Virus record (IMG/VR): IMGVR_UViG_3300050035_000086
Location: 1 to 64,000 of that record
Strand: one strand, 5' to 3'
DNA: 64,000 nucleotides
Source of the DNA: a virus
Notes under the pieces: model-generated
The model's database searches: none
Seen by the model: only the letters and a program-made list of their open reading frames with translations
What the model was told of the DNA's origin: nothing
In this document: piece by piece, positions 4,349-58,453 of the stretch
How positions within the stretch are numbered: the stretch's first letter is position 1
Layout of the letters: each line of letters starts with the position of its first letter
Position numbers and translations under genes: made by a program

Positions 4349-4383
4349 TTTAACCCGTCCATTATCTGGACAAAGGAATAATC

Positions 4384-4710
4384 ATGGCAGAGTCAAGAGC
4401 CAAATCCGGCATGGGTGGAAAGTCCGGAAAGAAATCTTCCAAAAAGTCGGGTCACATTCATGAGACCCATATCCGCCACTACAAGAGCGGCGGGCACGAA
4501 GTAACCCACCACTACAAAGATGACGCCGGAAATATTACCCCAGGTGATCCGGATATGATGGCGGACAAAGCGGCCCTTATGGCACACCTTCAGAATACGA
4601 TTCCCGACAATGGATCAGCGCAAGCAGCCCCCACAGGACCTCCTCAAGCCGCTGATGCCTCCCAACAGCAAGTAGCTCCTTCGCAAGCTCAAGCCCCTCA
4701 AGGTATGTAA
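4384..4710 (+). CDS. Hypothetical protein (basic/His-rich N-terminus)
   Basis: RBS AAAGGA, 108 aa. Confidence 0.65.
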   Translation: MAESRAKSGMGGKSGKKSSKKSGHIHETHIRHYKSGGHEVTHHYKDDAGNITPGDPDMMADKAALMAHLQNTIPDNGSAQAAPTGPPQAADASQQQVAPSQAQAPQGM

Positions 4711-8979: not shown

Positions 8980-11900
8980 ATGAATAAACTTTTTTTGCTG
9001 CTTCTTATTCCGATTCTTGCTTTTGGTCAAGCCACCACGGGGTACCACCGGGTCAATCAGCTTATATCTCGCGGAACTTCTGGAGTTACTGCTCAAATTG
9101 TTCCCAATGGGTCTATCTACGTAACCAACACGGTTACGGGAGCGACCGCAACTATTTATTCGGACCCCGGTTTGTCCATCCAGATCACTTCGGGGTTGGT
9201 TACCTCCGACAAAAATGGCAACTACGACTACTATATCCCACTGAGTTACTGTGTCAATGAGGCCGTTTCCTCTCCGGGACAAGGAAGTTATACCACAAAG
9301 AATATCTGCATAAACTCTGCGGGGGGTATCATTTCCGCCGGAACCGCAGGCCAGATTCCATATTACGCCGCAAATGGAACTACCGTGTCTCCGACTAGTT
9401 CTCTTCCAAATGGAATCACCGCTGCAACCCAAACCACGGGCGACAACACCACCAAAGTGGCTACGGATGCTTTTGTTCTTGCCAACGCTCCAACCGTAAA
9501 TTTCGCGGCTCCTCCTGTTCTAGGCAGCGCAACTCCGAACGTAGTCAATGGCACGAACGGAAACTTCTCAGGCACCGTCGCGGCTGGCACTTCGATGTCT
9601 GCGCCAGTAACTAATGGCGTGCAGACGGTTCCAGCGATTAGCGGGGATGCTACCACAGCCATCAATTCAGCGCTCTCGTCTGCCGGACCGGGAGGAACTG
9701 TGCAATTAACTCCCGGGTCTGTCTATACGACCCTCGGAACGATTAACGTCACACAGCAGGGTCTGACATTAAACTTTAATGGTGCCTGCATCAAACCTAC
9801 GGGAACCGGAGATAGTCTGCTGGTGAACGTGACGACTGGAATGATTGCTAACGTGGTGCTCAACTCACCATGCTTTATTGCAGGGGGGGCATCCACAGGC
9901 GCGTCGATCCATGATACGTCCAGCGTGTTTGGTACGAAAGTCAATAACCCTTCGTGGAAACAGCTTTCTGGAAACTCGCCGTCGAACGGATATTATTGGC
10001 ATTATCTGATTCAAGTGAATGGAGACGAACAGTTTACTATCGATGGGGCACAAGTTAACGGGACGTTTCTCGAATGCGATGTGACATTCTGCGGAGACGT
10101 GCTCTATAACACGCCCGGCCTGGGAACTGGCTCTGCCGCTGTAGTTTATTTGAACAATTCGAGCTTCAATCTGGAGAATGACGGCAACGGTGTGGACTGG
10201 GGAGGCTACGGAAATGATCTGCATTTGAGCAGTGTGGTGATCGAGAACACTTCGCAGTTCATGATTCGTTCTACTCCGACCGGTGCCGGTACAGGTGATG
10301 TAATTTGCGACAAGTGCCACTTGGAGGATACTGGGAGCAGCACAAATCCCGCCTTAAACGGCATCCACGCAGTTGCATTAGTCATTATGAACGGCGGGAC
10401 TTTTCATAATCACGGCGGAAGGCTTGAAGGTGCAGACATGACCTTCCACGCTACGGGCACCACGGGATCAACTGCCTGGAGTTATTTCTTTATTGCCAAA
10501 AGTGCGACTTACGGAGACACGGCTCCAATACCCTGGGGCCACGTTTCTAACGGGACAGCGGACTGGGTTGGGTCGAGTGTGGCCCTCACCTTCCCGTGCT
10601 TTACTCCGACGGGCAGCGACACAATTACGTACTCGATTTTGCGGACCACGGGGACAACTCCCTACCCGAATGATAATGTCTCGGATGTGGTGGCGATGGG
10701 ACAGACTTGCACGGGGACTTACTGGACATATACAGACACAGTTCTCACCTCGGCTCTGACGACTTATACTTTCACGGTCAACAGGTATAGCTTCTTTCCT
10801 AACAAAGTTCAGTACTTCTGGGGCAGTATTTTTCTCGGTGGCGCTGCCGCGAATGACAATACCCAAGAAGGGTCCTACACCGGAGACTGTCAGTTTGGTA
10901 ACAACGTTATTACGGCTCGAAATTACTCGCTGGTCAACTTTCCGCAAGTGTGGTGCGACAGTCCGTCCTATACCTATAATCCAAACGGAAGTCCTGTGAA
11001 TGTGGTTCAGGCGGTCCATTATACCCCGTATTACCAATCTGCTTTCATGCTTCAGAATAAATTCGGTGTGTACACTGGTGGAGGACAGAAGGGCGTTCTG
11101 AATCTCGGCTACTCTAACGCCCCGATGGACATTCTCACACTGTCAGACAGCAGTCCCTATAAGACGCTTTCCACATCGGATAATAGACCTGGGCACGATG
11201 CGGCAGACTCTGCTTTGGGGTCTGACAGTTCGACTGGAGACTTGGCACTGCGCAGCGGCAGTTCAATCGATTTGTATGTAAATAATTATTTCGATGGCTC
11301 GAATTGGCAGGAAAAGCTCACCGGCAATACAAAGATACTGAAATCCTCCTACGTGAATTGGACTGGGTTACTGGGCCTCCCAGCAGGAACGGCAAAATAC
11401 GGACTTCAGATAGATACAAACGGGGCCATTTCCCCCACAGGAACCAATAGCATCCCGACAGCGCAGGACCTTACAACGACGTATCTTTGCATCGGAAATA
11501 GTGGAACGTGGCGTCCCTACACATGCACAACGAGTCCGAATTTCACACAAACAAGCTGGGATTTATTTCTCTTTGTTCCCGACGTGACAAACACGAATGC
11601 GGGGGGTCTATCTCCTGAGTTAAACATCAACGGAGGTGGGAACGTGTATATCTACCAGCAGACTGCTGCCGGTCCTGCAACGCAAGTTCCAGCGGGAACT
11701 TTGCAGGCAGGGGTTCCGTATTGGATCGCTCATTCACCGGCATTCCAATATCTTTTGGTTGGACCTGCCGTACAACCGATCACGCTTACCGCTACAGGAA
11801 CGAGCGGGGCGGCAACCTATTCAAACGGCGCGCTAAACATTCCACAGTATGCGGGCGGATCGGCCAGTACGGTCCCCGGTGACCTGATTTGCGCTCATAT

Positions 11901-12885
11901 GGGAGACACCACCATTGACAACCTATCTATCACAGGCGGTAGCTGCGCAGGCGGTTCTTGCACCATCAATGTGAATACGGGAAACCAGCGCATCTACCAG
12001 GTGCCAGGCCAACTGTTCGGCATCGTCGGCAGCAGCACGACGGGTTTGAATGGCGGTCCATACACGCTGACATCCTCAACCGGGCTGCTCATGACGTTCC
12101 CTCAGACGGCGTCTTCCGGCACAGTGTCCAGTGGGGGCGATGTGTTTCTGTGGTGCGAAAATCAAGCAGCCGATGCCACTACCGCGACCGCCTTTTCTAA
12201 TAACACCATTCCTGTGCCAGCTAACACGATGGTCGCGGGAACTCCTTTGAATCATAGGGCGCAACTATCCTTTGTGAGCAGCTCTACGCCGCCCGGTTTG
12301 ACTCCCACTCAGGTTTTTATAGGGTCAACTCCGGTACTGGCCACAGCGGGTCCTTCGGCTATTGACGGCAGCATGGCCTTCCGTATGGGAGAGATTGGGT
12401 TCGATCTGGTTCCGCTCACCGTAGGCAGCAGCGGCTTGATAACAGCTTCATGGCTTGGGATTCCGTCGCTGCCCATGAGTTACCAGTCAACCGCCTACTG
12501 GTACAACATCAACACGCCAAACCCCACGATGATCAACACAACCAATTCAAACGTGGTATCGCTATCGACGGCCTATACCGCGACGGGTTTGGGGTCCATC
12601 ACGGCCAGCAGCGGATGCACGGTGACCGGCTCGATCGGCCAGACGGTGTTGCTGACCTCTTTCAACAACGGCAACACGACGGCTACGGCGACCGGCACGC
12701 TGATCGCAGCCAATACGATTTCCGGGGCTACATGGGTGGTGACGAACACCGGCCAGGCAGCCACGGCTGCGGCGACTTCCGCAACATGCGGTAACGGTAC
12801 GGCCACGGCCAGCGGGACAGCCACTTTGACCACCACGCTGGGCGGCGCGCAAGGCAATGCGGTCATGCTGGTGAGTTTGCAATAA
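8980..12885 (+). CDS. Tailspike/tail fibre-like protein with signal-peptide-like N-terminus (1301 aa)
   Basis: MNKLFLLLLIPILAFGQ; fibre motif TTGDNTTKVATDAFV; beta-helix entry motif DATTAINSALS...GGTVQLTPG. Confidence 0.7.
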   Translation: MNKLFLLLLIPILAFGQATTGYHRVNQLISRGTSGVTAQIVPNGSIYVTNTVTGATATIYSDPGLSIQITSGLVTSDKNGNYDYYIPLSYCVNEAVSSPGQGSYTTKNICINSAGGIISAGTAGQIPYYAANGTTVSPTSSLPNGITAATQTTGDNTTKVATDAFVLANAPTVNFAAPPVLGSATPNVVNGTNGNFSGTVAAGTSMSAPVTNGVQTVPAISGDATTAINSALSSAGPGGTVQLTPGSVYTTLGTINVTQQGLTLNFNGACIKPTGTGDSLLVNVTTGMIANVVLNSPCFIAGGASTGASIHDTSSVFGTKVNNPSWKQLSGNSPSNGYYWHYLIQVNGDEQFTIDGAQVNGTFLECDVTFCGDVLYNTPGLGTGSAAVVYLNNSSFNLENDGNGVDWGGYGNDLHLSSVVIENTSQFMIRSTPTGAGTGDVICDKCHLEDTGSSTNPALNGIHAVALVIMNGGTFHNHGGRLEGADMTFHATGTTGSTAWSYFFIAKSATYGDTAPIPWGHVSNGTADWVGSSVALTFPCFTPTGSDTITYSILRTTGTTPYPNDNVSDVVAMGQTCTGTYWTYTDTVLTSALTTYTFTVNRYSFFPNKVQYFWGSIFLGGAAANDNTQEGSYTGDCQFGNNVITARNYSLVNFPQVWCDSPSYTYNPNGSPVNVVQAVHYTPYYQSAFMLQNKFGVYTGGGQKGVLNLGYSNAPMDILTLSDSSPYKTLSTSDNRPGHDAADSALGSDSSTGDLALRSGSSIDLYVNNYFDGSNWQEKLTGNTKILKSSYVNWTGLLGLPAGTAKYGLQIDTNGAISPTGTNSIPTAQDLTTTYLCIGNSGTWRPYTCTTSPNFTQTSWDLFLFVPDVTNTNAGGLSPELNINGGGNVYIYQQTAAGPATQVPAGTLQAGVPYWIAHSPAFQYLLVGPAVQPITLTATGTSGAATYSNGALNIPQYAGGSASTVPGDLICAHMGDTTIDNLSITGGSCAGGSCTINVNTGNQRIYQVPGQLFGIVGSSTTGLNGGPYTLTSSTGLLMTFPQTASSGTVSSGGDVFLWCENQAADATTATAFSNNTIPVPANTMVAGTPLNHRAQLSFVSSSTPPGLTPTQVFIGSTPVLATAGPSAIDGSMAFRMGEIGFDLVPLTVGSSGLITASWLGIPSLPMSYQSTAYWYNINTPNPTMINTTNSNVVSLSTAYTATGLGSITASSGCTVTGSIGQTVLLTSFNNGNTTATATGTLIAANTISGATWVVTNTGQAATAAATSATCGNGTATASGTATLTTTLGGAQGNAVMLVSLQ

Positions 12886-17673: not shown

Positions 17674-20316
17674 ATGAGTTACTCACCAGCATCAATCGTG
17701 ACTTCGGGCGCATTGCCCAACCTCGTAGCTATTCACTAAAATCTTGGTGAATTCAAACTGTTCTAAATCGGCGAAAATCTTCTTGACAAGGTCTGCTAGG
17801 TGTGGTAGACTATAGTTATCGAATAAAGAAAACGCCGAGGAAACCGTGAAAGAGAAAACCAAAAGTTATATGGCTGGGATTCTAGATGCAGAAGGTTGCC
17901 TCCGAATCGCCACCCACAAACGAGGCAACAAAACCTACTACGAACCCAAGGTCTATTTGAGTAACAAATCAAAGGCCGTGATGCAGTGGTCGGTCCTACA
18001 TTTCGGGGGAAGTTTCGTCCGAAATGTAAACAACAAAGCAGGGGAAGATTGGTTCATTTGGTATCTTCAATCATTTCCCACCGTTGTTAGTTTCCTCAAA
18101 ACTATTCTGCCCTACTTGAAGTACAAGAGGGAGCAAGCTGAAACTCTTATTGAGTTCATTGAGAACAGAGAAAATCTGTCCGACAACCAAAAGAACGAGT
18201 ATGTTCTGAAACTCAAAGAGATGAAGCAACACGGGTCCGTAACGACTGAAACGAACAGCAGCTATCTAAAAGCAGAACCAGCATACCTAGCCGGATTCTT
18301 TGATGGCAAAGGTTGTGTTCGGGTCAATAAGACTCCGATGAAAAACACAACCGCCTACCATCTAATTGTATCTATTGCCAACAACGACCGATCTGTTTTA
18401 GATTCTTGTAAAGAACTCTATGGCGGAGATGTCAGAGCCAAAGGGAAAAGAAATTGCTTCTCTTGGAGTTTATTCTCCAAAGCAAGCATTGAAAAATTCC
18501 TCGTGGATAGCCTTCCGTATCTTGTAGTTAAAAGAGACGAGGCGTTGGCGGCACTAGAATACGTTCAACTAAGACGAGCACAATGCCCAGCAAAACGCGA
18601 AGCCTTGTATCTTCGGTTGATAGCTTTAAAGAAGCTGAAGACACAGTCTGAACTGCATAGTGATATGCAGAGCGCCCCAGCAGAGATGCTGACGGCCTAA
18701 AACACACTGATGAACGTGAAGCAATTCCTAACCTGAAGGCACAAACTCCCTTCCTCAGCATGACGAAGCAGCGTCCGCTGCCCCTCCGTCAGGGAAACCA
18801 AATTCAGTGAACAATATTGCTGAATCCAAATCCGGCTATATCGGTGGACAACTCTCTGAGTCAATACCGAGGGAAGACTGGGAAACCAGAACCCGTAGAG
18901 GCTAATACGCCGGACAGTCCATTATTTGGACTGAAGATAGAGTCCGAGCTATGGGGTGACCTATAGAGCGACCTTGTGGTGACGCAAGAGAGGCGAAAGC
19001 CTAGTGACCCGAAAGGGCATTTCCAAAACAAGACTGTCTTCACCTACGCTCTGCTTGCCGCTAACCTTAATCAGGCTGCGGAAGGCACAGTCGGATCTCC
19101 TATCAGTGAATCCAGCAATAAAATTGTCGCGACCATCGGGCAATATGCTGATTTCATTAATAGTTCCGACCTTGCCCTGGACGTTGCAATTGACGACCCG
19201 GGTCTCCTTCAGAACTTGGCAAACGAACTGAACTACCGCTTGGCTCTCACCCTCAACTCCCTCGTCCAGCTTACCGCTGACTCGGCTGTTGCGGTCGATA
19301 GCTTGGTAAACATCCAGCTTGCAAACGGCTCGTATCTGACTGCGAATAACATCCGGTCTGCTGCTCAGTCGCTGGTAAGCGTTAACGCTCGTCCTCTCGT
19401 GGACAACAAATTTGGTGGAATCATTCACCCTAATGTAGTCCGCGACGTGCTGAACGACACCTCCTTTAATGGTCTGACCGACATTATCAAGAGGTCTGAG
19501 GAAATGCGCAACATGCTGTTTGAACTGCCTAAGAATGAGGATACCATCTCGTTCGCCGGGGTCACGTTCAAACAGACATCCACTGCCCCCACTGTAACAA
19601 TCTCCGGAAATACCTATGGACTTGAAAGTCTAGTAGCCTGAAGAAGTAATTCTTCTTGAATCACGTCGCTAATTCGGTGGACATCTCTCAGAGACAATAC
19701 CGAGCCAAACCCAAGAAATTGGGAAGTGTGTAGAGAGCATAGACGACGCTCCTGAAAAGGATGATGATGTGCTCCGGCCTGTATGGCGACATACAGAGAC
19801 TGATAGAAATACTCAGTCCCGTCCAGATACTGGACGAGTAACAAAAGCGTACAATAGTTATATTTTCGGCGATGACGCAATCTTCTCCGTCTTCCTGGGG
19901 AAGAATCCAAACGATGGATCGAAGAACTATCAAATGGTAGCTTAGGGGAGTAATTCCCTTCGAACACACCGCTAATTCAGGGAACAACTCTTCGGAGTCA
20001 ATCCTGAGCGAAGCCCGAAAGGGAACGTGCAGAGGCCATACACGGTGCCCCTCGAAAGAGGGTGATGAGATGGTCCGCTCTATACGGCGACGTATAGAGG
20101 TGGGCGGAACAAGAAACGACCCACCCTTGTCCAAATAATGGACATGTAACACAGAGGAAATTGTTCATACAGTCCGCGCCAGAACAAGGCAGCGTGAGTG
20201 ATCCGGCCCGTCAAATCGGCGGGTGGGTCAGTTACAACGTGAGGTATACCAATACTTTGCGTCCGGGCTCGACAATGACGCTTCGTCGTTTGCAGTCGGA
20301 AACATCATCCAGCTAA
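17674..20316 (+). CDS. Major capsid protein, spliced: join(17674-17737,18710-18808,19037-19617,19850-19930,20158-20316), 327 aa
   Basis: Exons sum to 984 nt in frame: MSYSPASIVTSGALPNLVAIH-Y-EREAIPNLKAQTPFLSMTKQRPLPLRQGNQIQ-F-FTYALL...QYADFINSSD...IIHPNVVRDV...SGNTY-YNSYIFGDDAIFSVFLG...KNY-KLFIQ...DPARQIGGWVSY...SETSSS*; resembles N4-gp56-like capsid proteins; RBS AAAGGAG. Confidence 0.88.
17783..17811 (+). promoter_or_regulatory. Intron-internal sigma70 promoter for the endonuclease ORF
   Basis: TTGACA-17 bp-TAGACT with TG extension, 35 nt upstream of GTG 17846. Confidence 0.7.
17846..18700 (+). CDS. Intron-encoded double-motif LAGLIDADG homing endonuclease/maturase
   Basis: Motifs YMAGILDAEG and YLAGFFDGKG, each followed by 'LPYLxxKREQA/KRDEA' helices. 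Confidence 0.88.
   Translation: MKEKTKSYMAGILDAEGCLRIATHKRGNKTYYEPKVYLSNKSKAVMQWSVLHFGGSFVRNVNNKAGEDWFIWYLQSFPTVVSFLKTILPYLKYKREQAETLIEFIENRENLSDNQKNEYVLKLKEMKQHGSVTTETNSSYLKAEPAYLAGFFDGKGCVRVNKTPMKNTTAYHLIVSIANNDRSVLDSCKELYGGDVRAKGKRNCFSWSLFSKASIEKFLVDSLPYLVVKRDEALAALEYVQLRRAQCPAKREALYLRLIALKKLKTQSELHSDMQSAPAEMLTA
18809..19036 (+). mobile_element. Group I intron 2 (228 nt, ORF-less)
   Basis: P1 ATTCAGT/GCTGAAT U-G; P3 CCGGC/GCCGG; J8/7-P7 GAAGATAGAGTCC; terminal G19036; removal restores QIQ-F-FTY. Confidence 0.88.
19618..19849 (+). mobile_element. Group I intron 3 (232 nt, ORF-less)
   Basis: Exon ends CTAT pairing with GTAG; P3 CGTCG/CGACG; P7 GAGCA/TGCTC; P8 TCCT-gaaa-AGGA; terminal G19849. 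Confidence 0.83.
19931..20157 (+). mobile_element. Group I intron 4 (227 nt, ORF-less)
   Basis: Exon ends CTAT pairing with GTAG; P3 CACCG/CGGTG; P7 GGCCA/TGGTC; P8 CCCTC-gaaa-GAGGG; terminal G20157; similar to intron 3. Confidence 0.83.
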
Positions 20317-20342
20317 TGGATGAAATAATTTCGATTTTCTTG

Positions 20343-20370: not shown

Positions 20371-20447
20371 GTACTTGGATTCGAATTCAAAGGTAAAGGG
20401 CGGCGCTGACCCGTCGCCCCAAACCTCATGGTCAGATGAGGATAAAA

Positions 20448-20981
20448 ATGAAAACCAAAGTTTGCAAGAAGTGTGGAATAGAGAAATCAGTAGAAGAGTT
20501 TGGTAAAAAGCTGTCGGGATGGACTGCCTTGTGTTTAGATTGCACGCGGCGGAGAGATAGAGAACGATATGCGGCCAATCACGAGGAAATTAGGGAAGTG
20601 CAAAATGAGTACTACTCTAAGAACTCGGCAAAGATAATGGCGCAGATGAAGCAGGCACTAAAGAATCACCCGGAAAGAGGTCTTCTTAGGTTAGCTCAAC
20701 GTCGCTGCAAGAAGTCGGGGGTTGTTTGCACGATAACTGAGAAAGATATTGTAGTTCCGGAGTTTTGCCCCATCCTGGGTTTGAAGTTAGAATTTGGGGA
20801 AATGGATAACCGAAACAACTCTCCGAGCCTGGACCGCATAATCCCCGAACTAGGGTACGTCCCGGGAAACGTTGCTGTAATCTCGTATAGAGCCAATCGA
20901 ATCAAAAACGAAGGTCTAGCAGAAGAGCACCGCAAGATAGCCGACTGGATGGACGCCCAAAAGGAACTCACCAATGCCTAA
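20448..20981 (+). CDS. Free-standing HNH-type homing endonuclease
   Basis: N-terminal CKKC...CLDC zinc motif; CPILG...SPSLDRIIPELGYVPGNVAVISYRANRIKN. Confidence 0.8.
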   Translation: MKTKVCKKCGIEKSVEEFGKKLSGWTALCLDCTRRRDRERYAANHEEIREVQNEYYSKNSAKIMAQMKQALKNHPERGLLRLAQRRCKKSGVVCTITEKDIVVPEFCPILGLKLEFGEMDNRNNSPSLDRIIPELGYVPGNVAVISYRANRIKNEGLAEEHRKIADWMDAQKELTNA

Positions 20982-40212: not shown

Positions 40213-43200
40213 ATGTCTAACTCAGTAGACCTTAGTGGAATCTGGGGGCAAACAACCGCCTCCACAGAAACTAATGCTCCTGCTCCTCCAAGCGCTGTCG
40301 ATTTAAGCAGCATTTGGGGGGCGCAAAAATCATCTCCAGTTGCCCCCACTTCAACTCCCGGGGCCGCCGACCTCAGCAGCATATGGGGTGGAGGTTCTGC
40401 GCGTCCAGATAATGGACAACCTGCCCAACCTATTCAGCATGTTTACCAAGACCCAAATCAAAGTTGGTATAAAAGGGCCTGGGACTTCGCACAGACACCG
40501 ATCACGGAAAGTCTCTTCGGAATGCCAGAAGAAAGAGAAGGGGCTGGTGGCCTTGAGCGCGGTATAGAACACATTGCATCTGGGTTTACGAGTCCCCTCT
40601 CGCTCGCGCTGACCGCTGCCACCTTCGGCACTGGGTCTTTGATCGAAAGCGCCGGAGCAACTGCCCTCAAAGAAGCCGGACTCTCTACTGCCGAAATTGC
40701 AGATGCTGTCAAAGGCTCCCAAGCGGCTCTAGGTGCTCTCAAGGAAGCGAAGTCAGTGGACCCAGTCATTCAACAAGCTCTGGAAGCGGGAGGGCACGAT
40801 CTGGGTCTTCTGGATCGGGCTAGGAAACTCGTGTCTCCGTTAAATCGAGACGCGGAGTTCGGTTCGTCTGCAATTCAGAACGCCCTAAAGGAATCTGGAA
40901 AATTCTCCCCAGAAGAACTAGAAGCTCTGGGTAAGGCCGGAGACGCAGTCGCCGAAGCCAAGGCTGGATTCCACCCAGTTGAAGACGCCGTACGCGAAAC
41001 AGGCGCAGATGTAGACGTTTGGAAGCGCGCGCAGAAAGCCCTATACGATAATGGCCTGACTGAGCAGGACCTATTGTCTAAAAATATGCTCGAAAACGGG
41101 GCCTTCCAAGTCCTGCGTCACACGATCCCGGATCTACCTGTCGCTGCTACTGCTCGAATGGCCAAGACTGCGAATGCTGTTTTGAATGCCGGATTTACCC
41201 TCCAGCAGTTTGAAACAGCAGCGGCTATGTCTCCCCGATTCCTCGACGCTCTCAAAGAAGGGGACACCGATAAAGCTTGGGAGTACGGAACAGAAGCCTT
41301 TGCAGGCGGTGCTTTGGGAATCCTCGGGACGCCTCACGCTCTTCACGCAGCGGGAGAACTGTTCAAACCGCTTCTGGAGACCGACAAGTTCAGACCCAAC
41401 GACGAGTTTTTGGCAATGGACCGGGCTAACAAGGAACGTGAAGTTCAACATGCAGTCGGAGAACAAGAATCCATCAATTTGGATAGCCGCGTTCGGAAAA
41501 TTCTCGGACACGAAACTCCCGGCTTTAAGGATAAGGTATTTGGCCCAAATGCTGATGTAAAATCACAGAAAGAACTTGAACTAGCTTCTGTGTTTCATCA
41601 GGTGGTCACCGGAGGAGACGCTGAAAAAGCGGCTGTTTGGCACGACGCTCTTGCGGAGGCATTGGGCAAAGACGAGCGCTTGACGAAGAGTCCAGATAAT
41701 GGACAGTATGGTCCAGCTAATGAAGCCGATGAGTGGGATCAGCTTGAAAACGAGGTTCATTCTCGAACTGGAAAGGACCCGGCGGACGTTTCTTATGCCG
41801 AGTTACAGAAAGCAGGAGTATCTCCAGAACTACTAAACAACTGGGATAAGTACACAAAGAGAAACCCGTTTTCAGCCGACACCCCAGAATTGTCTAAATA
41901 TGCTCGCACACAGACTCTCTCAGGAATCGGAACCGCTAATCCTGTTTTACTTCTCAACGACTACGCTCACGAACTACTCACCCGTGTTTGTATGAACACT
42001 CGGAACTGGTACGGAGCTGAGTTTAACACAGAAGATGTTGGGAAACTGGTGTCCGCTCTTCGAGAAGAGGCACAAAAAGGAGACAGAGGAAACCTCTCGG
42101 TACTTGCGAACGAACTAGAAAAAGCCGCGTCGGGGGGTAGGTCTGTGGTCGCCGTTAAGAAAATCGGTGGTCTCGCGCAGACATCTACCATTGCTCACGA
42201 GCAGACACACGTCTGGCAGACTAAATATCCTCTGACCCCGGAGCAACTGAAGCCGGTACTCGGTGATCCTCTGTACCGAGATGCCCTAAACGATTTGTAC
42301 CGCAAAGGATATAAGTCGGATACAGATACGCTTCCAGATGAAATCCTGTCTCATCTATCCACTGATGATCGACTTGGGTTATCAAAAACAGAAGCAAAGG
42401 ACTTGACAAAGAAGTTCTTGTCGTTGTATCCTAAAGAAGCAATATCGGAATTCCCGAACAGAAATGAAACCACTCTAAATGCCCTGAAGGAGCTAGGATA
42501 CGATGAGAATATTAACCAGACCGCAAATCGAGGAATACTTTACCAAACGTCACGAGTCTTCGGAAACGGAGCGGGGTCTCCGCACCCCTACCTCCCCGAC
42601 AACATCCGAGAACTCATCGCCGACAACAACTTCAAAGCACTCCCCGATAGCTATAAAGCCACTGTCTTAGCCTCTTTAAAGAGAGTTGCTAACGGAGAAC
42701 TATCTGACCGGGAGCTTGAAGCAGCCAAAGCTCTGAGAGACGAGCAGGCTCGCAATTTCCAAATAGGATCGTCCAACGATCTTCTGCACTCGTTCGTCCA
42801 AGACTACATGACCCGTACCTACAAGGACCTGAATCCAGACGGTAAGGTTGTTGCGTCCGAAGCCAAGCAGGGTAAGTTCGCTACGAACGTCACGATGGCT
42901 CGTCAGCGCGTATATGACTCTCACCTAACCGCCCTTCTGAAATCTCCAAAGCCAATCGACTTTGATCCGGTGTCTGTAACAGCTAAAGGACGCGGAGAAC
43001 TCATCAAAGCAGCGGCAAACAAACAGTTGATTGACACTCTCCGCGATCAGTTCACTCGCGGCTCAGACGGTCGTCCTGCGGTAGTTCTCTCAGGACAAGG
43101 CCAAGTTGTGTCTGGACAAAATGGGGAAGACCCTAAAACTTTCATCGACCCAAACCGGGTTCGTAAAATCAACATTGCAGATTCAGTAGTCCAGCAACTG

Positions 43201-53543: not shown

Positions 53544-53927
53544 CTAATATTTCTTCCCATTAGCCTTCATCCGGTTCTCCCGCTTGTGGTCTTCGCGAGT
53601 CTTATTGTATTCCAATTTCTCCGCGTAAGCCCCACCCAGGTCCATCCCCAGTCCAGCAGCAATATCAAAGATTCGGATGACGGCGTCAGCAAGCTCTACT
53701 TCAATCATTTTCCGGTGAGGAAGGTGGTCATCCATCAAGTTCTTCCGATGTCCCTCCATCGCCTCGCTAATTTCGCTGTGGACTAGACATAGAAGTTCTC
53801 CCACATTTCGTTCGGTCGGTTTTCCAGTTTCCAAATCTACCCACCACTTTTGATTAATCTCGTGAACTTCCTGGGCGAGATCGTTTATGATCGCTGCTGC
53901 AAACTTTACTTGATAGTCTTCTGACAT
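53544..53927 (-). CDS. MazG-like NTP pyrophosphohydrolase
   Basis: LVHSEISEAMEGHRK...EVELADAVIRIFD...KLEYNKTR. Confidence 0.8.
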   Translation of the reverse strand: MSEDYQVKFAAAIINDLAQEVHEINQKWWVDLETGKPTERNVGELLCLVHSEISEAMEGHRKNLMDDHLPHRKMIEVELADAVIRIFDIAAGLGMDLGGAYAEKLEYNKTREDHKRENRMKANGKKY

Positions 53928-54439
53928 TATTCCACCTCGAAATATTTCTTCAGATTTTTGATCCCGCTATCTACTAGGTTCGCTACCTGTCTGCGGCTGA
54001 TTCCAAAATCTCCGGCGGTCTCTCGCTGTGACTTCCCGTCTACGAACACGTTGTAGATTACTCTGTACTCATCCAAAGGAAGACTATAAATAGCCCCATA
54101 CAATTCTTCGTCTGAGACCTCTGCAACCGGCTGCGGTATCTTCTCAGCTTGGTGCATAATCTTGGGCAAGGAGAGCGACACCAGCCGGGGTCCGGGATCT
54201 TCCTTGGTGCGCTGTGGGTGCTGCCCAGTTCGCCACAAGTCTGTGATCCGGCTTCGGCAAATTCGAGCGGCGTAAGCCTCTCCTTTTCCCTTGTCTATAC
54301 CTTTTTGAACGTGATACTTCTTTTCAAGCAAGGCTACGTAGCACTCCTGGCTCAGGTCTTCCCTCTGATCGGCGGGGATTTTAAGCCGCGAAAGAACTCG
54401 CTCGATTACCGATTTGTATTTAAGAACGTCAATGTCCAT
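53927..54439 (-). CDS. Sigma-70 family (ECF-like) RNA polymerase sigma factor
   Basis: REDLSQECYVALL (region 2), C-terminal HTH GKSQRETAGDFGISRRQVANL (region 4). Confidence 0.75.
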   Translation of the reverse strand: MDIDVLKYKSVIERVLSRLKIPADQREDLSQECYVALLEKKYHVQKGIDKGKGEAYAARICRSRITDLWRTGQHPQRTKEDPGPRLVSLSLPKIMHQAEKIPQPVAEVSDEELYGAIYSLPLDEYRVIYNVFVDGKSQRETAGDFGISRRQVANLVDSGIKNLKKYFEVE

Positions 54440-55172: not shown

Positions 55173-55901
55173 TCAGTTTTTGACATCGCTTAGTTCTCCT
55201 CTCCAAGTTGAAACCGATTCTCGAACTGCCGCTAAGAATACCTGTTTGTGCAACTCATGCTCCGACTCGGACGTGATCTCCAGCACTTGTTTCCCCAACT
55301 TCCAGAACTCGTCTATCTCTTTTCTCTCGTCTGGCGTAGCGTAGAACCCGGGAAGCTCCAACCAAAGCCCAGAGGGAAGCTCGTGGACATGAAGAAGCTC
55401 ATTTACCTTGACCCGAAGCTGGGCTGCTGTTACTTTGGGGCGAAGAGCGTAGTCCATTATCTGGACAGTATAGCATCCGTTTCCATCACCATCTTCATTA
55501 TCCGTATCGTTGATTTCTGCGTGTACGTTTCCGTCGTTCTGGACCAGTCGTCTCAATTCATGAGCTTTAGTAATCCCAATCTCTTCCAACTTGCTCTCAG
55601 AAATATGCGGAAGCAAAACTTCAGCTACAGACAGTATAGCATACAATTGTGACCTACGTCTATCTATTTTTTCGCGAATCGTCTCCAAGTAGGAAGAAAA
55701 CCGGTCAAAACCGTAGGCTATCCAGTACTGCTGTAGCTTTACCTCCCGGAGAAGAGAACCGAGGCGGGCATAGGAATGGGAAAGTCTCTCTTCGTGGGAG
55801 CATATCTGACCGATGAGTGCATCAATTTCCTTTCCTTTTACGAGAGCGTCTTCCTGGTTTAGAGGAGGAAGGTAGGAAGGTATTGTCTGAATTTCGTTCA
55901 T
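55173..55901 (-). CDS. Hypothetical DNA-binding-type protein
   Basis: LGSLLREVK...YGFDRFSSYLE...RRSQLY...IGITKAHEL pattern of phage helical DNA-binding proteins. Confidence 0.5.
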   Translation of the reverse strand: MNEIQTIPSYLPPLNQEDALVKGKEIDALIGQICSHEERLSHSYARLGSLLREVKLQQYWIAYGFDRFSSYLETIREKIDRRRSQLYAILSVAEVLLPHISESKLEEIGITKAHELRRLVQNDGNVHAEINDTDNEDGDGNGCYTVQIMDYALRPKVTAAQLRVKVNELLHVHELPSGLWLELPGFYATPDERKEIDEFWKLGKQVLEITSESEHELHKQVFLAAVRESVSTWRGELSDVKN

Positions 55902-56980
55902 TACTTCGTCTCCTTCTTCCCCGCCATCGGCATTACCAAAGTAGTCATATTTCCGGATTCCAGACGTATCGGCTTGTTCTTGTCTACTAGACCCAAAGTA
56001 GCCTCTTCCCCCGCTTTTGCCAAGAATGCGGACAGATACTTGGCCTTAACCCTCAGATTCGAGACAGTTACCGGCTGAAACAAGGGGTCCGGGTCGATCT
56101 GTTCGTAGGGCGCTTCGTCTGAGGCGGTTGATCCTACTCCAGTATTTCTATATTGTACCACACCTTCGGCGAATTGTAAATCTATTCCTCCTTGATCTAT
56201 AGATTCGTCAATTAAAGTCTCAACCGTACGGAGAGCAGCTACCCACTCCTCCGTCTTGAATCCGAACTTGAGCTTCGAAGGAATTGCCAGAAGCCCGTCA
56301 AAATTCGGGAACGTCTGGGTCGGTTTGGAAGCGAATACGCGGATTCCTCCCGACTGGGCGTACAGGTGCGTATTGGATTCCCCGAGGGAGATCGTACCGT
56401 CCATTATCTGGACTATTGCAGCCGCCGGGAGATTCAACGTCATCTTGAATTCGAACGGGACTGAGTTGCCCACGGTCGCCACGGTAAGCACGTTCGCGTC
56501 TGTCCCCACAATTCGATAGCCGGATGGAGATTCTTCCTCGATACCCAAAGGCAGGCTCTGGAGCAGGACAACACCGCCGAACGCCGAAGCCTTATTAGGA
56601 GACGCCGAAGCAACAGCAATAGACAGGGCCTTCTTGAGATCGACAGAAGCCAGTTCCAGGACCTTGGTAGGAGGCTCGGGAATCTTGAGAGGCTTGATAT
56701 CCTGGATTTCCAATTCGATCTTCGCGCGCGCCGACTTCAGAGACAGGAGCTTCTCTTCCTTGGCGATCTCGACTTGTCCGGACATTCGACCTACGACCTG
56801 AGAAAGCTTCTTTCCGTTGACCGAGAAAGTTCCCCCTAGTCCGGATAATGGACTTTCTGAGACAACCCAAATGTCACTATCCTGGGCGCTTATGCCGTGC
56901 TCTCCGATTTGGTAGAACTCGGTACGAACCGGCGAGAACACCCTAAGACTTTTCTTTAGCTCTGTGGCGACTATGTTCAC
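55901..56980 (-). CDS. dnaN: DNA polymerase III beta sliding clamp-like protein
   Basis: 359 aa; VGTDANVL, FPNFD, KAKYLSAFL, KPIRL...LVMPM. Confidence 0.75.
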   Translation of the reverse strand: MNIVATELKKSLRVFSPVRTEFYQIGEHGISAQDSDIWVVSESPLSGLGGTFSVNGKKLSQVVGRMSGQVEIAKEEKLLSLKSARAKIELEIQDIKPLKIPEPPTKVLELASVDLKKALSIAVASASPNKASAFGGVVLLQSLPLGIEEESPSGYRIVGTDANVLTVATVGNSVPFEFKMTLNLPAAAIVQIMDGTISLGESNTHLYAQSGGIRVFASKPTQTFPNFDGLLAIPSKLKFGFKTEEWVAALRTVETLIDESIDQGGIDLQFAEGVVQYRNTGVGSTASDEAPYEQIDPDPLFQPVTVSNLRVKAKYLSAFLAKAGEEATLGLVDKNKPIRLESGNMTTLVMPMAGKKETK

Positions 56981-57279
56981 TGATTATCCCTTTCATATCT
57001 TGCTTCTTCTAGCCACCCTTCAACCGGCATAGAGAATCGAGTGAGTCGGTCCCTAGATTCGTTGCATAATTCTAAGGCTCGAAATAGAAGATCTCTATCT
57101 GGACTGCCGAGAGATTCTTCTCTGTAGATCATTTTCTGAATCTCAGACAACGGCTTTCCAAATAGGGTGTTCCCAGGGTCGGACATAATCTCTTCTATAA
57201 GTCTTTCGCGTGATCGAAAGCTACCCAGCGATGCGTTGCCCACATTTTCTCGATCTCCTAAATCCTCATTCAAACCCAT
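56977..57279 (-). CDS. Hypothetical protein
   Basis: RBS GAGGAGG. Confidence 0.5.
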   Translation of the reverse strand: MGLNEDLGDRENVGNASLGSFRSRERLIEEIMSDPGNTLFGKPLSEIQKMIYREESLGSPDRDLLFRALELCNESRDRLTRFSMPVEGWLEEARYERDNQ

Positions 57280-58453
57280 TTGGGTCCTCCTCTTCGTGGT
57301 TTGTATCCAACACTTTGGATTGTAACATACTGTCCATCCAATCCGCAATCTTTAAATGCTCCTCGGCGGTGCCGTCGTTTTTGAGCAGGTTTGCGCGATA
57401 CGAAATAACAACAACGTTACCTTTAAAATATCCCAGAGAAGAATCAATTCTGTCGAGAGTCGGCGAATAACTTTCTAGTCGCCCAACCCCTCTCCGCAAA
57501 ATCCAACCGAAAACGGGACATATTCTCGGTATTTGTATATCTTCTTTGGTAAGTTCAAACAACAAATCTCGATCTTTGGCTCTTCTCTTCGCGTTATGGT
57601 ACATACTGACTACAATTTGCTTAACTTCCTTACTAAGCGACAAAAACTCCCCCGAAGGGTGCCCGGAAGACATCCATTCTGAAATTCTTCTGTGTTCCTC
57701 CGCAGTTCCACTATTTTTGATTCGATTAGCTCTATTCGAAATTACAAATATGTTGTCAGGAACGTATCCCATGTTAGGAATAAAGCGATCCAAAGAAGGA
57801 GAATTATCCCCAGAAACCCCCCGCGCGCGGCGAATAGGTATCCCAAGAACTGGACACGTAGCCGGAACTGATATATCATCCTCCGTGATTGAAAAAGGAA
57901 TAAAGAATTTTTCGGCTCTTGTTTTTGCACCATCTACCAACCCCTTCTCTAGGTGCGTGTCTTCGTACACGTCCTGATAAAGTTTCATGTACCTTTTGTG
58001 TTCAGGGGTTTGTTGCCTCTCTCTGTTTCTCTGTTTTGTGGACTCTTTTTGCCTATAATCGCGCTGAGCTTTCTTACTCTGGGGTGTATTTCTGTACGCC
58101 CCTTGATACTCCCGCATGTACTCGATACGGTTTTGAGTCTCTCGGTATTTCTTTTGGCATGTCTTGCAGCTACTGCATTTTCCATCTTCTTTGGTTGTAT
58201 CTCGGCTAAAATTCATTAGCTCTTGGGACTCTCCGCAGGTTCCGCATACTTTAAACAGAGCCTGCCCAAGAGGCGCGGCAAGCAATAGGTTATTTTTCTT
58301 CCTGTTTCTTTCGGCGCGCTCTGCGTCAGATTCTTTTTGGCACTCCTTACATCTTGCTTGCAGTCCATCTTTAGCTTTTCTGTTTTTAGAAAAGCATTCT
58401 ACTTTCTTGGATTTTCCGCAAGTACAACATGATTTTTCTGCTTTTTGGATCAT
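57266..58453 (-). CDS. HNH homing endonuclease with two tandem nuclease domains
   Basis: Two CxxC...CxxC units plus two CPV(L/F)G...SP(S/T)LDR...GY...NxxVISxRANxxKN domains. Confidence 0.8.
   Translation of the reverse strand: MIQKAEKSCCTCGKSKKVECFSKNRKAKDGLQARCKECQKESDAERAERNRKKNNLLLAAPLGQALFKVCGTCGESQELMNFSRDTTKEDGKCSSCKTCQKKYRETQNRIEYMREYQGAYRNTPQSKKAQRDYRQKESTKQRNRERQQTPEHKRYMKLYQDVYEDTHLEKGLVDGAKTRAEKFFIPFSITEDDISVPATCPVLGIPIRRARGVSGDNSPSLDRFIPNMGYVPDNIFVISNRANRIKNSGTAEEHRRISEWMSSGHPSGEFLSLSKEVKQIVVSMYHNAKRRAKDRDLLFELTKEDIQIPRICPVFGWILRRGVGRLESYSPTLDRIDSSLGYFKGNVVVISYRANLLKNDGTAEEHLKIADWMDSMLQSKVLDTNHEEEDPNGFE

Follow-up and report, generated by a model that had tools for sequence, protein, structure and literature searches.

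The closest described counterparts of a short site dispersed through a phage genome are the stoperators of Cluster A mycobacteriophages, whose motif is similar but not identical from genome to genome, tracks relatedness and lies predominantly in one orientation relative to transcription (PMC6550527). The repressor of such a system is described as a two-domain monomer reading an asymmetric site (PMC9283540). Here we analyse a dispersed 15-base site of a peat phage in a 64,000-nucleotide window, which covers positions 1-64,000 of one 92,952-bp virus contig (IMG/VR record IMGVR_UViG_3300050035_000086; 50% G+C; the whole genome is called G000), in which three copies of the site form hairpins within introns of the capsid gene. 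As with the stoperators of L5 and Bxb1, dozens of short asymmetric copies are spread across the genome of a probably temperate phage, and the motif is specific to the genome and follows relatedness; unlike stoperators, the site is nearly palindromic, is found in both orientations (212:160) and has copies inside genes and inside ribozyme helices. The capsid introns of Cluster J mycobacteriophages are alike in being group I introns at varying insertion sites, some with homing endonucleases and some without an open reading frame (ORF), and in that literature we found no report of peripheral helices that carry, or co-vary with, a dispersed DNA site of the phage (PMC3706429).

The first-pass annotation had proposed that the dispersed motif is built into three introns as RNA hairpins. 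All three hairpins were confirmed in the sequence, one in each of the group I introns 2, 3 and 4:

18915..18933, + strand: P8 hairpin of intron 2 (P8 as given by the Rfam alignment), CAGTCCA-TTATT-TGGACTG, with the core GTCCA-TTATT-TGGAC at 18917-18931
19820..19836, + strand: terminal 3' hairpin of intron 3, CGTCCAG-ATA-CTGGACG, with the core GTCCA-GATAC-TGGAC at 19821-19835
20128..20144, + strand: terminal 3' hairpin of intron 4, TGTCCA-AATAA-TGGACA, with the core GTCCA-AATAA-TGGAC at 20129-20143

These hairpins are true copies of the genome-wide 15-bp site of the phage. The identification of the motif as dispersed held up, as GTCCA-N5-TGGAC occurs 26 times in the window compared to 0.59 expected from dinucleotide-preserving shuffles (largest shuffle count 3) and 36 times in the whole 92,952-bp genome, where a 5-base spacer is the sole spacer used. 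The consensus in G000 is GTCCAGATAATGGAC or its reverse complement, with the exact consensus spacer in 24 of the 36 copies. Folding with ViennaRNA gave arm-pair probabilities of 0.87-1.0 for the three hairpins (0.94-0.97 for that of intron 2, which presents a pyrimidine loop in the RNA), and the hairpins of introns 3 and 4 are each the last helix of the intron, exactly 13 nt (NGTAACA...G) before the 3' splice site. At the genome-wide density of 36 per 93 kb, about 0.27 copies would be expected in the 687 nt of ORF-less intron, where three were found (Poisson P ~0.003 by our own arithmetic).

With relaxed matching there are 54 sites in G000 and 29-70 in each of six relatives, every genome with its own variant. 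The site thus has more than 20 dispersed copies, a short asymmetric sequence and a lineage-specific consensus, as stoperators do. Fifteen of the 54 relaxed G000 sites fall in the ~5% of the genome outside called ORFs, a density of ~3.0/kb compared to 0.44/kb in genes, so that noncoding DNA is about seven times denser in the site. The ORF-less introns, with 3 copies in 687 nt, reach 4.4/kb (again our arithmetic); this is of the same order as other noncoding DNA, and no special attraction to introns is needed. In six genomes, conservation ends 1-2 bases outside the 15-mer and information content is zero beyond. Gaps between sites are more even than random in 4 of 6 genomes (coefficient of variation 0.65-0.74 versus 0.97 expected; largest gap ~5 kb). 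A recurrent layout was seen at 4357, 13297, 49200, 51850, 53232 and 61284, in which a stop codon is followed by the site, a Shine-Dalgarno sequence and a start codon 10-15 nt past the site; it occurs with either orientation of the site, and short intergenic spacers may force it.

To compare lineages, 80 IMG/VR loci were collected by a scan with exon 3 of the capsid gene (capsid proteins 49-98% identical), and the genomes of eight relatives (G001-G008) were taken whole. Site variants, found through the commonest 12-mers of whole genomes, were as follows:

G000: GTCCA-GATAA-TGGAC
G001: GTCCA-(T/G)AAAA-TGGAC
G002: TTCCA-GATAA-TGGAA
G003: GTCCG-G(A/G)TAA-TGGAC
G004: GTCCA-GAAAA-TGGAC
G006: GTCCG-CAAAA-CGGAC
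G008: GTCCG-AATAA-TGGAC, alongside the G000 form

No over-represented word was present among the commonest 12-mers of G005 and G007. Each of the seven site-bearing genomes has 30-70 sites of its own variant, which is homogeneous within a genome, and variant arms are also used by L009-L014, L077 and other loci.

The intron copies change with each phage's own site variant. For the 38 scored intron copies (of 45 distinct ones) at loci with a derivable non-intron consensus, the mean Hamming distance was 1.16 to the non-intron consensus of their own genome and 2.75 to those of others, a closeness matched by 0 of 10,000 label shuffles in a test that kinship among L009-L014 inflates somewhat. Individual introns follow the same pattern. 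The G002 homologue of intron 2 (87% identical) has the P8 sequence TTCCA-TTATC-TGGAA, with both outer arm bases switched to the G002 form; one P8 in the G006 introns reads ATCCG-CAAAA-CGGAT, and another G006 intron has the exact G006 15-mer. AATAA is found in all copies of L027, intron and non-intron, and GAAAA in all copies of L030 and L036. The annotation had named comparison with homologous introns as its check, and the same hairpins in introns of unrelated genomes as a result that would speak against it. The comparison showed something else: in other phages, the place of the hairpin is taken by an unrelated hairpin or by the local phage's own variant.

Across the 80 relatives the capsid gene is an intron hot-spot, with ~128 introns (93 distinct) at no fewer than 15 insertion sites; up to five introns occur in one gene (L003, L033, L036), and the gene is uninterrupted in many relatives. 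In introns of the intron-3/4 type, P8 is short and GNRA-capped, and the 3' end has a fixed order of P9, a second hairpin, 'CC', the terminal hairpin and (A)GTAACA. The terminal hairpin is motif-like in 16 of the 43 distinct tails of this type; nearly all of the 27 others hold a different stem, such as CGTTC/GAACG, CGTCTA/TAGACG, CGCCC/GGGCG or CATCG/CGGTG. RNAalifold recovered three helices from 25 homologous tails, with compensatory changes at all five pairs of the terminal helix. These compensatory changes and unrelated stems establish the terminal 3' helix as a conserved structural element with free sequence. In the intron-2 type, the variable hairpin is P8. Of 45 distinct intron copies, 19 were assigned to P8 and 19 to the terminal hairpin (38 in all), and some of the remaining 7 adjoin a variant of the sequence that follows P8. 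In G006 (L077), an intron after aa 236 has an exact copy of that genome's own variant in a third place, apparently the tip of P6. The proposal that introns took up the site at structurally tolerant positions is supported, as the helix sequences vary freely among homologues and the copies follow the phage variant. Its companion, that the ORF-less introns are long-term residents, is plausible, since their insertion sites are shared with relatives, whose introns there are 77-100% identical.

These comparisons also bear on the reverse direction, in which GTCC...GGAC hairpins would be old in the intron family and the site seeded from introns or owed to shared intron ancestry. The P8 of intron-2-type introns is indeed almost always GTCC(A/G)-N5-(T/C)GGAC-like in all lineages, large endonuclease-bearing members included. 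However, descent alone does not predict that intron spacers and arms follow the genome variant, compensatory arm changes included, and the 30-70 sites per genome stand against 1-5 intron copies. Moreover, G008 has ~30 sites and an uninterrupted capsid gene, showing that the site system and the introns are independent. We regard such an origin, by seeding or by shared ancestry, as very improbable.

The structure of the capsid gene was resolved by tblastn of an uninterrupted homologue, P0001 (327 aa; 88-97% identical), against the region, which set the exon-intron junctions:

17674..17737, + strand: exon 1, aa 1-21 and the first base of codon 22, ending in U (P0001 alignment)
17738..18709, + strand: intron 1, with a LAGLIDADG endonuclease ORF at 17846-18700 and no copy of the site (P0001 junction)
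18710..18808, + strand: exon 2 (P0001 alignment)
18809..19036, + strand: intron 2, ORF-less group I, 228 nt (Rfam RF00028, 51.0 bits; the junction restores QFFTYALL as in homologues)
19037..19617, + strand: exon 3 (P0001 alignment)
19618..19849, + strand: intron 3, ORF-less group I, 232 nt (Rfam, 38.3 bits; the junction TY/YNSY agrees with P0001)
19850..19930, + strand: exon 4 (P0001 alignment)
19931..20157, + strand: intron 4, ORF-less group I, 227 nt (Rfam, 63.8 bits; the junction KNY/KLFIQ agrees with P0001)
20158..20316, + strand: exon 5, with the stop codon TAA at 20314-20316 (P0001 alignment)
20307..20321, + strand: weak site copy ATCCA-GCTAA-TGGAT, overlapping the stop codon of the capsid gene

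By sequence, introns 2-4 are group I introns, and their splicing is predicted. Rfam matches cover 18799-18966 (51.0 bits), 19614-19796 (38.3 bits) and 19921-20097 (63.8 bits). Introns 2 and 4 lie above the RF00028 gathering score of 50 and intron 3 below it (E 2.6e-07); the alignment of intron 3 spans the full model, and this intron is a homologue of intron 4 with a 100% identical copy in L003. A U precedes each 5' splice site and G is the last base of every intron (G19036, G19849 and G20157 for introns 2-4), and for introns 2-4 only, P1 splice-site pairs were assigned at U18808·G18819, U19617·G19633 and U19930·G19937. The joined exons match the 327-aa P0001 ungapped, leaving the reading frame intact after intron removal. 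The ORF of intron 1 matches Pfam LAGLIDADG_1 at 4.4e-10, with a weak Rfam match over the 3' part of this intron, and the rest of the genome has no further group I intron at the Rfam gathering score. The family of the capsid protein is large and includes many uninterrupted proteins of 327-329 aa; its label in one source is 'N4-gp56 family major capsid protein'. At the 3' end of the gene, the copy in L005 is a full one (GTCCA-GCTAA-TGGAC, 1251-1265) and overlaps the point, 1257, at which the capsid-gene match of that locus stops; the six full-length capsid homologues compared share the C-terminal peptide SETSSS. A blastn search with the capsid region, run on 50,697 cultured phage records, yielded just two ~50-nt matches, both to the intron core. 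At the protein level, the closest cultured phage is Tunturiibacter phage Tunturi_3, whose capsid protein is 41% identical and whose annotated capsid gene has no intron.

Whether the site acts as DNA or as RNA can be judged in part from its orientation. When sites are oriented by their spacer relative to the local gene strand, as called by a greedy ORF heuristic, the purine loop is in the sense strand in 212 cases and in the antisense strand in 160 across the seven site-bearing genomes, with no single genome significant. The variant GTCCG...TGGAC would give G·U or A·C in RNA, depending on its orientation, and inside genes the two orientations are divided 43:44. Neither the loop nor the pairing is therefore selected in RNA outside introns. 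The introns differ: their 45 distinct copies show the purine loop in the RNA in 39 cases (39:6; Fisher 8e-5 versus the genome), and intron G/T variants favour the G·U orientation 15:1 (Fisher P = 0.002). Homologous introns can have the site in P8 in opposite orientations, with TTATT or TTATC in intron 2 of the window, L003 and L014 versus GATAA in L002 and L025. We conclude that in introns the ribozyme fold filters what a DNA-level process supplies.

The intron bias is also what would be expected if a phage protein bound the purine-loop hairpin in introns and mRNA leaders, coupling splicing or translation to the state of infection. For comparison, lambda boxB is a 15-nt element with a 5-bp stem and a purine-rich pentaloop that occurs twice per genome, in the sense orientation only, downstream of early promoters. 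The phage hairpin has a similar geometry, its 5-bp stem closing a pentaloop of GAUAA or GAAAA, and the GAAAA of the G004 lineage equals the loop of nutR boxB. Many intergenic copies also lie 0-5 nt upstream of a Shine-Dalgarno sequence, and sense copies are in slight excess genome-wide. The site does not conform to the boxB type, however, with 30-70 copies, both orientations and most copies inside genes. Intron 2 and five other intron copies present a pyrimidine loop, exact consensus copies precede the ribosome sites at 4357 and 13297 in the 'wrong' orientation, and most homologous tails do without a motif-like hairpin. Folding constraints explain the intron bias more simply, and we consider an RNA function unlikely. 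The suggestion in the first-pass annotation that a protein bound to an RNA stem-loop could couple splicing to a regulator is not supported: P8 holds the site in either orientation, many homologues have unrelated hairpins and outside introns there is almost no preference for the sense strand.

The origin of the copies was examined by alignment to sequences at the same positions in other phages. Seven of 8 in-gene copies were ungapped at the site relative to orthologues, including orthologues from phages without the site; for the eighth, at 40403, there were gaps in a flanking low-complexity stretch. By these ungapped alignments, in-gene copies were made by substitution in place and not by insertion. 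Short palindromes are known from compact mitochondrial genomes, where Neurospora PstI palindromes, yeast GC clusters and Allomyces double-hairpin elements occupy intergenic DNA and peripheral loops of group I introns; these are regarded as mobile insertions that add length. The phage copies, unlike these, arise by substitution and replace a pre-existing hairpin of similar size. A mobile palindromic insertion of the MITE, REP or GC-cluster type was accordingly rejected, both for the in-gene copies and for the intron copies. Taken together, the orientation balance, the opposite orientations of P8, the lack of flanking conservation and the origin by substitution suggest that the duplex is recognised, or at least not the transcript.

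The site turns over locally and rapidly. In L002, the counterpart of intron 4 is 98% identical, with 4 differences in 227 nt, 3 of which lie in the hairpin loop and destroy the site there; in L036, the counterpart of intron 3 keeps 89% identity over 195 nt and then has a different terminal hairpin. This pattern would also fit a 15-mer without function, which biased gene conversion, or template switching between near-palindromes, would spread and homogenise; the intron helices and other existing hairpins whose stems are alike (CGTYC...GRACG) would be easy targets, and a binding protein would be unneeded. The clustering of differences in the loop, the exchange of a whole hairpin between conserved flanks, the homogeneity of variants within a genome and the similar stems of non-motif terminal hairpins all agree with such self-propagating short-patch conversion. 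However, some sites are orthologous between genomes and differ just in the lineage spacer, for example the G000 site that precedes the gene at 4384 and its counterpart in G004. Sites that hold position while switching variant, the even spacing and the retention of exact 15-mers in conserved proteins suggest selection, and no enzyme for such conversion is known here. We find conversion without function unlikely.

Other functions for the site were considered and rejected. A sigma-70-type promoter is contradicted by the lack of -35-like flanking conservation, the occurrence of both orientations and the location mostly inside genes; some variants contain a -10-like hexamer in either orientation, but the GGTAA and CAAAA lineages do not. 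There is no U-tract beside the sites, as an intrinsic terminator would have, and no ParB_N domain in the genome, as a ParB/parS-type reading would require. The site is intrinsically asymmetric: among sites of all site-bearing genomes oriented by spacer, G5/T11 arms (GTCCG...TGGAC) number 126 and A5/C11 arms (GTCCA...CGGAC) 17, an excess independent of the direction of transcription.

The explanation we favour, and consider reasonably probable, is a DNA-level recognition site that is written into noncoding DNA and kept in introns where an RNA helix already exists. From what is directly observed (positions, helix tolerance, lineage tracking, orientation statistics and substitution origin) we infer that a protein binds the site, acts on DNA and has its effect there. 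A putative sequence-specific protein encoded by the phage would target the site on double-stranded DNA, its specificity drifting between lineages, in an arrangement that would work like a stoperator or operator network, without our assigning it to that family. Selection or short-patch conversion would write the site into existing sequence where the cost is low, which would make it denser in noncoding DNA than in genes. A 15-bp near-palindrome would fit introns only at dispensable hairpins, the tip of P8 and the last 3' hairpin, and the ribozyme fold would filter the surviving orientations and arm variants toward a purine-rich loop and toward G·U rather than A·C.

Several observations weigh against this explanation. 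Unlike stoperators, ~70% of the sites lie inside genes, and the 212:160 split shows no one predominant orientation to transcription; the gene calls behind these orientation counts are themselves heuristic. The 126:17 excess of G5/T11 arms would fit selection on a single-stranded hairpin too. Besides the kinship noted above, the 45 intron copies share ancestry, so the events are not independent. All three intron copies in the window are one base off the G000 consensus spacer (TTATT, GATAC and AATAA), and 2 of the 3 AATAA copies in G000 are intron copies; this deviation may reflect decay, tuning of the RNA or import with the intron. Finally, a classical helix-turn-helix repressor was not found in Pfam and PHROGs searches of 50 ORFs.

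Candidates for the putative binder were sought by comparing site-bearing and site-free genomes for their content of G000 ORFs, followed by Pfam and PHROGs searches. The sole DNA-binding candidate restricted to site-bearing genomes (tblastn) was an ECF-like sigma factor gene at 53927-54439 (- strand), with Pfam Sigma70_r2 and r4 matches just under the cut-offs and a match to the PHROG 'RNA polymerase sigma factor' at 1.5e-10. It adjoins an HNH gene and lies two genes away from a DnaN-type clamp gene (55901-56980). We treat it as a candidate without asserting that it binds the site; with G005 and G007 only 77-78% complete, the absence of genes there is weak evidence. A tyrosine integrase (PF00589, 44.5 bits) is encoded outside the window at 88479-89603 of G000 (L123 4479-5603) and is conserved in G001-G004, and the phage is therefore probably temperate.

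Directly after the capsid gene is a free-standing gene of the endonuclease VII/HNH type at 20436-20981 (+ strand) with its own sigma-70-like promoter, and a larger paralogue lies in the replication module at 57266-58453 (- strand; PHROGs 3322 and 1035). Relatives of this gene were detected by tblastn in site-bearing genomes and not in G005 or G007, and this gene could provide the ORF-less introns with a homing function. A 1301-aa ORF at 8980-12885 (+ strand), located between the terminase and portal genes, matches nothing in Pfam or PHROGs; its conservation extends to G001-G004 and G008, and it was not found in G005-G007.

If the DNA-level explanation is right, one sequence meets two unrelated demands, those of a genome-wide DNA recognition site and those of a ribozyme helix. 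A stronger form, which we think quite improbable, is a two-level element in which one phage protein reads the site as duplex throughout the genome and as a purine-loop hairpin in RNA; the regulator would then stabilise or block folding of the capsid ribozymes, tying capsid production to the lysis-lysogeny state. The relatives provide a built-in evolutionary control, as the site changes and the intron helices follow, down to compensatory arm changes. This offers a measure of the sequence freedom of peripheral helices in group I introns, and the tracking by introns indicates active maintenance of the motif system. Its 15 or more insertion sites place the capsid gene of these phages among the densest intron hot-spots seen, and ~100 uncultured, probably temperate phages from soil and peat are available for finding the putative binder by co-variation.

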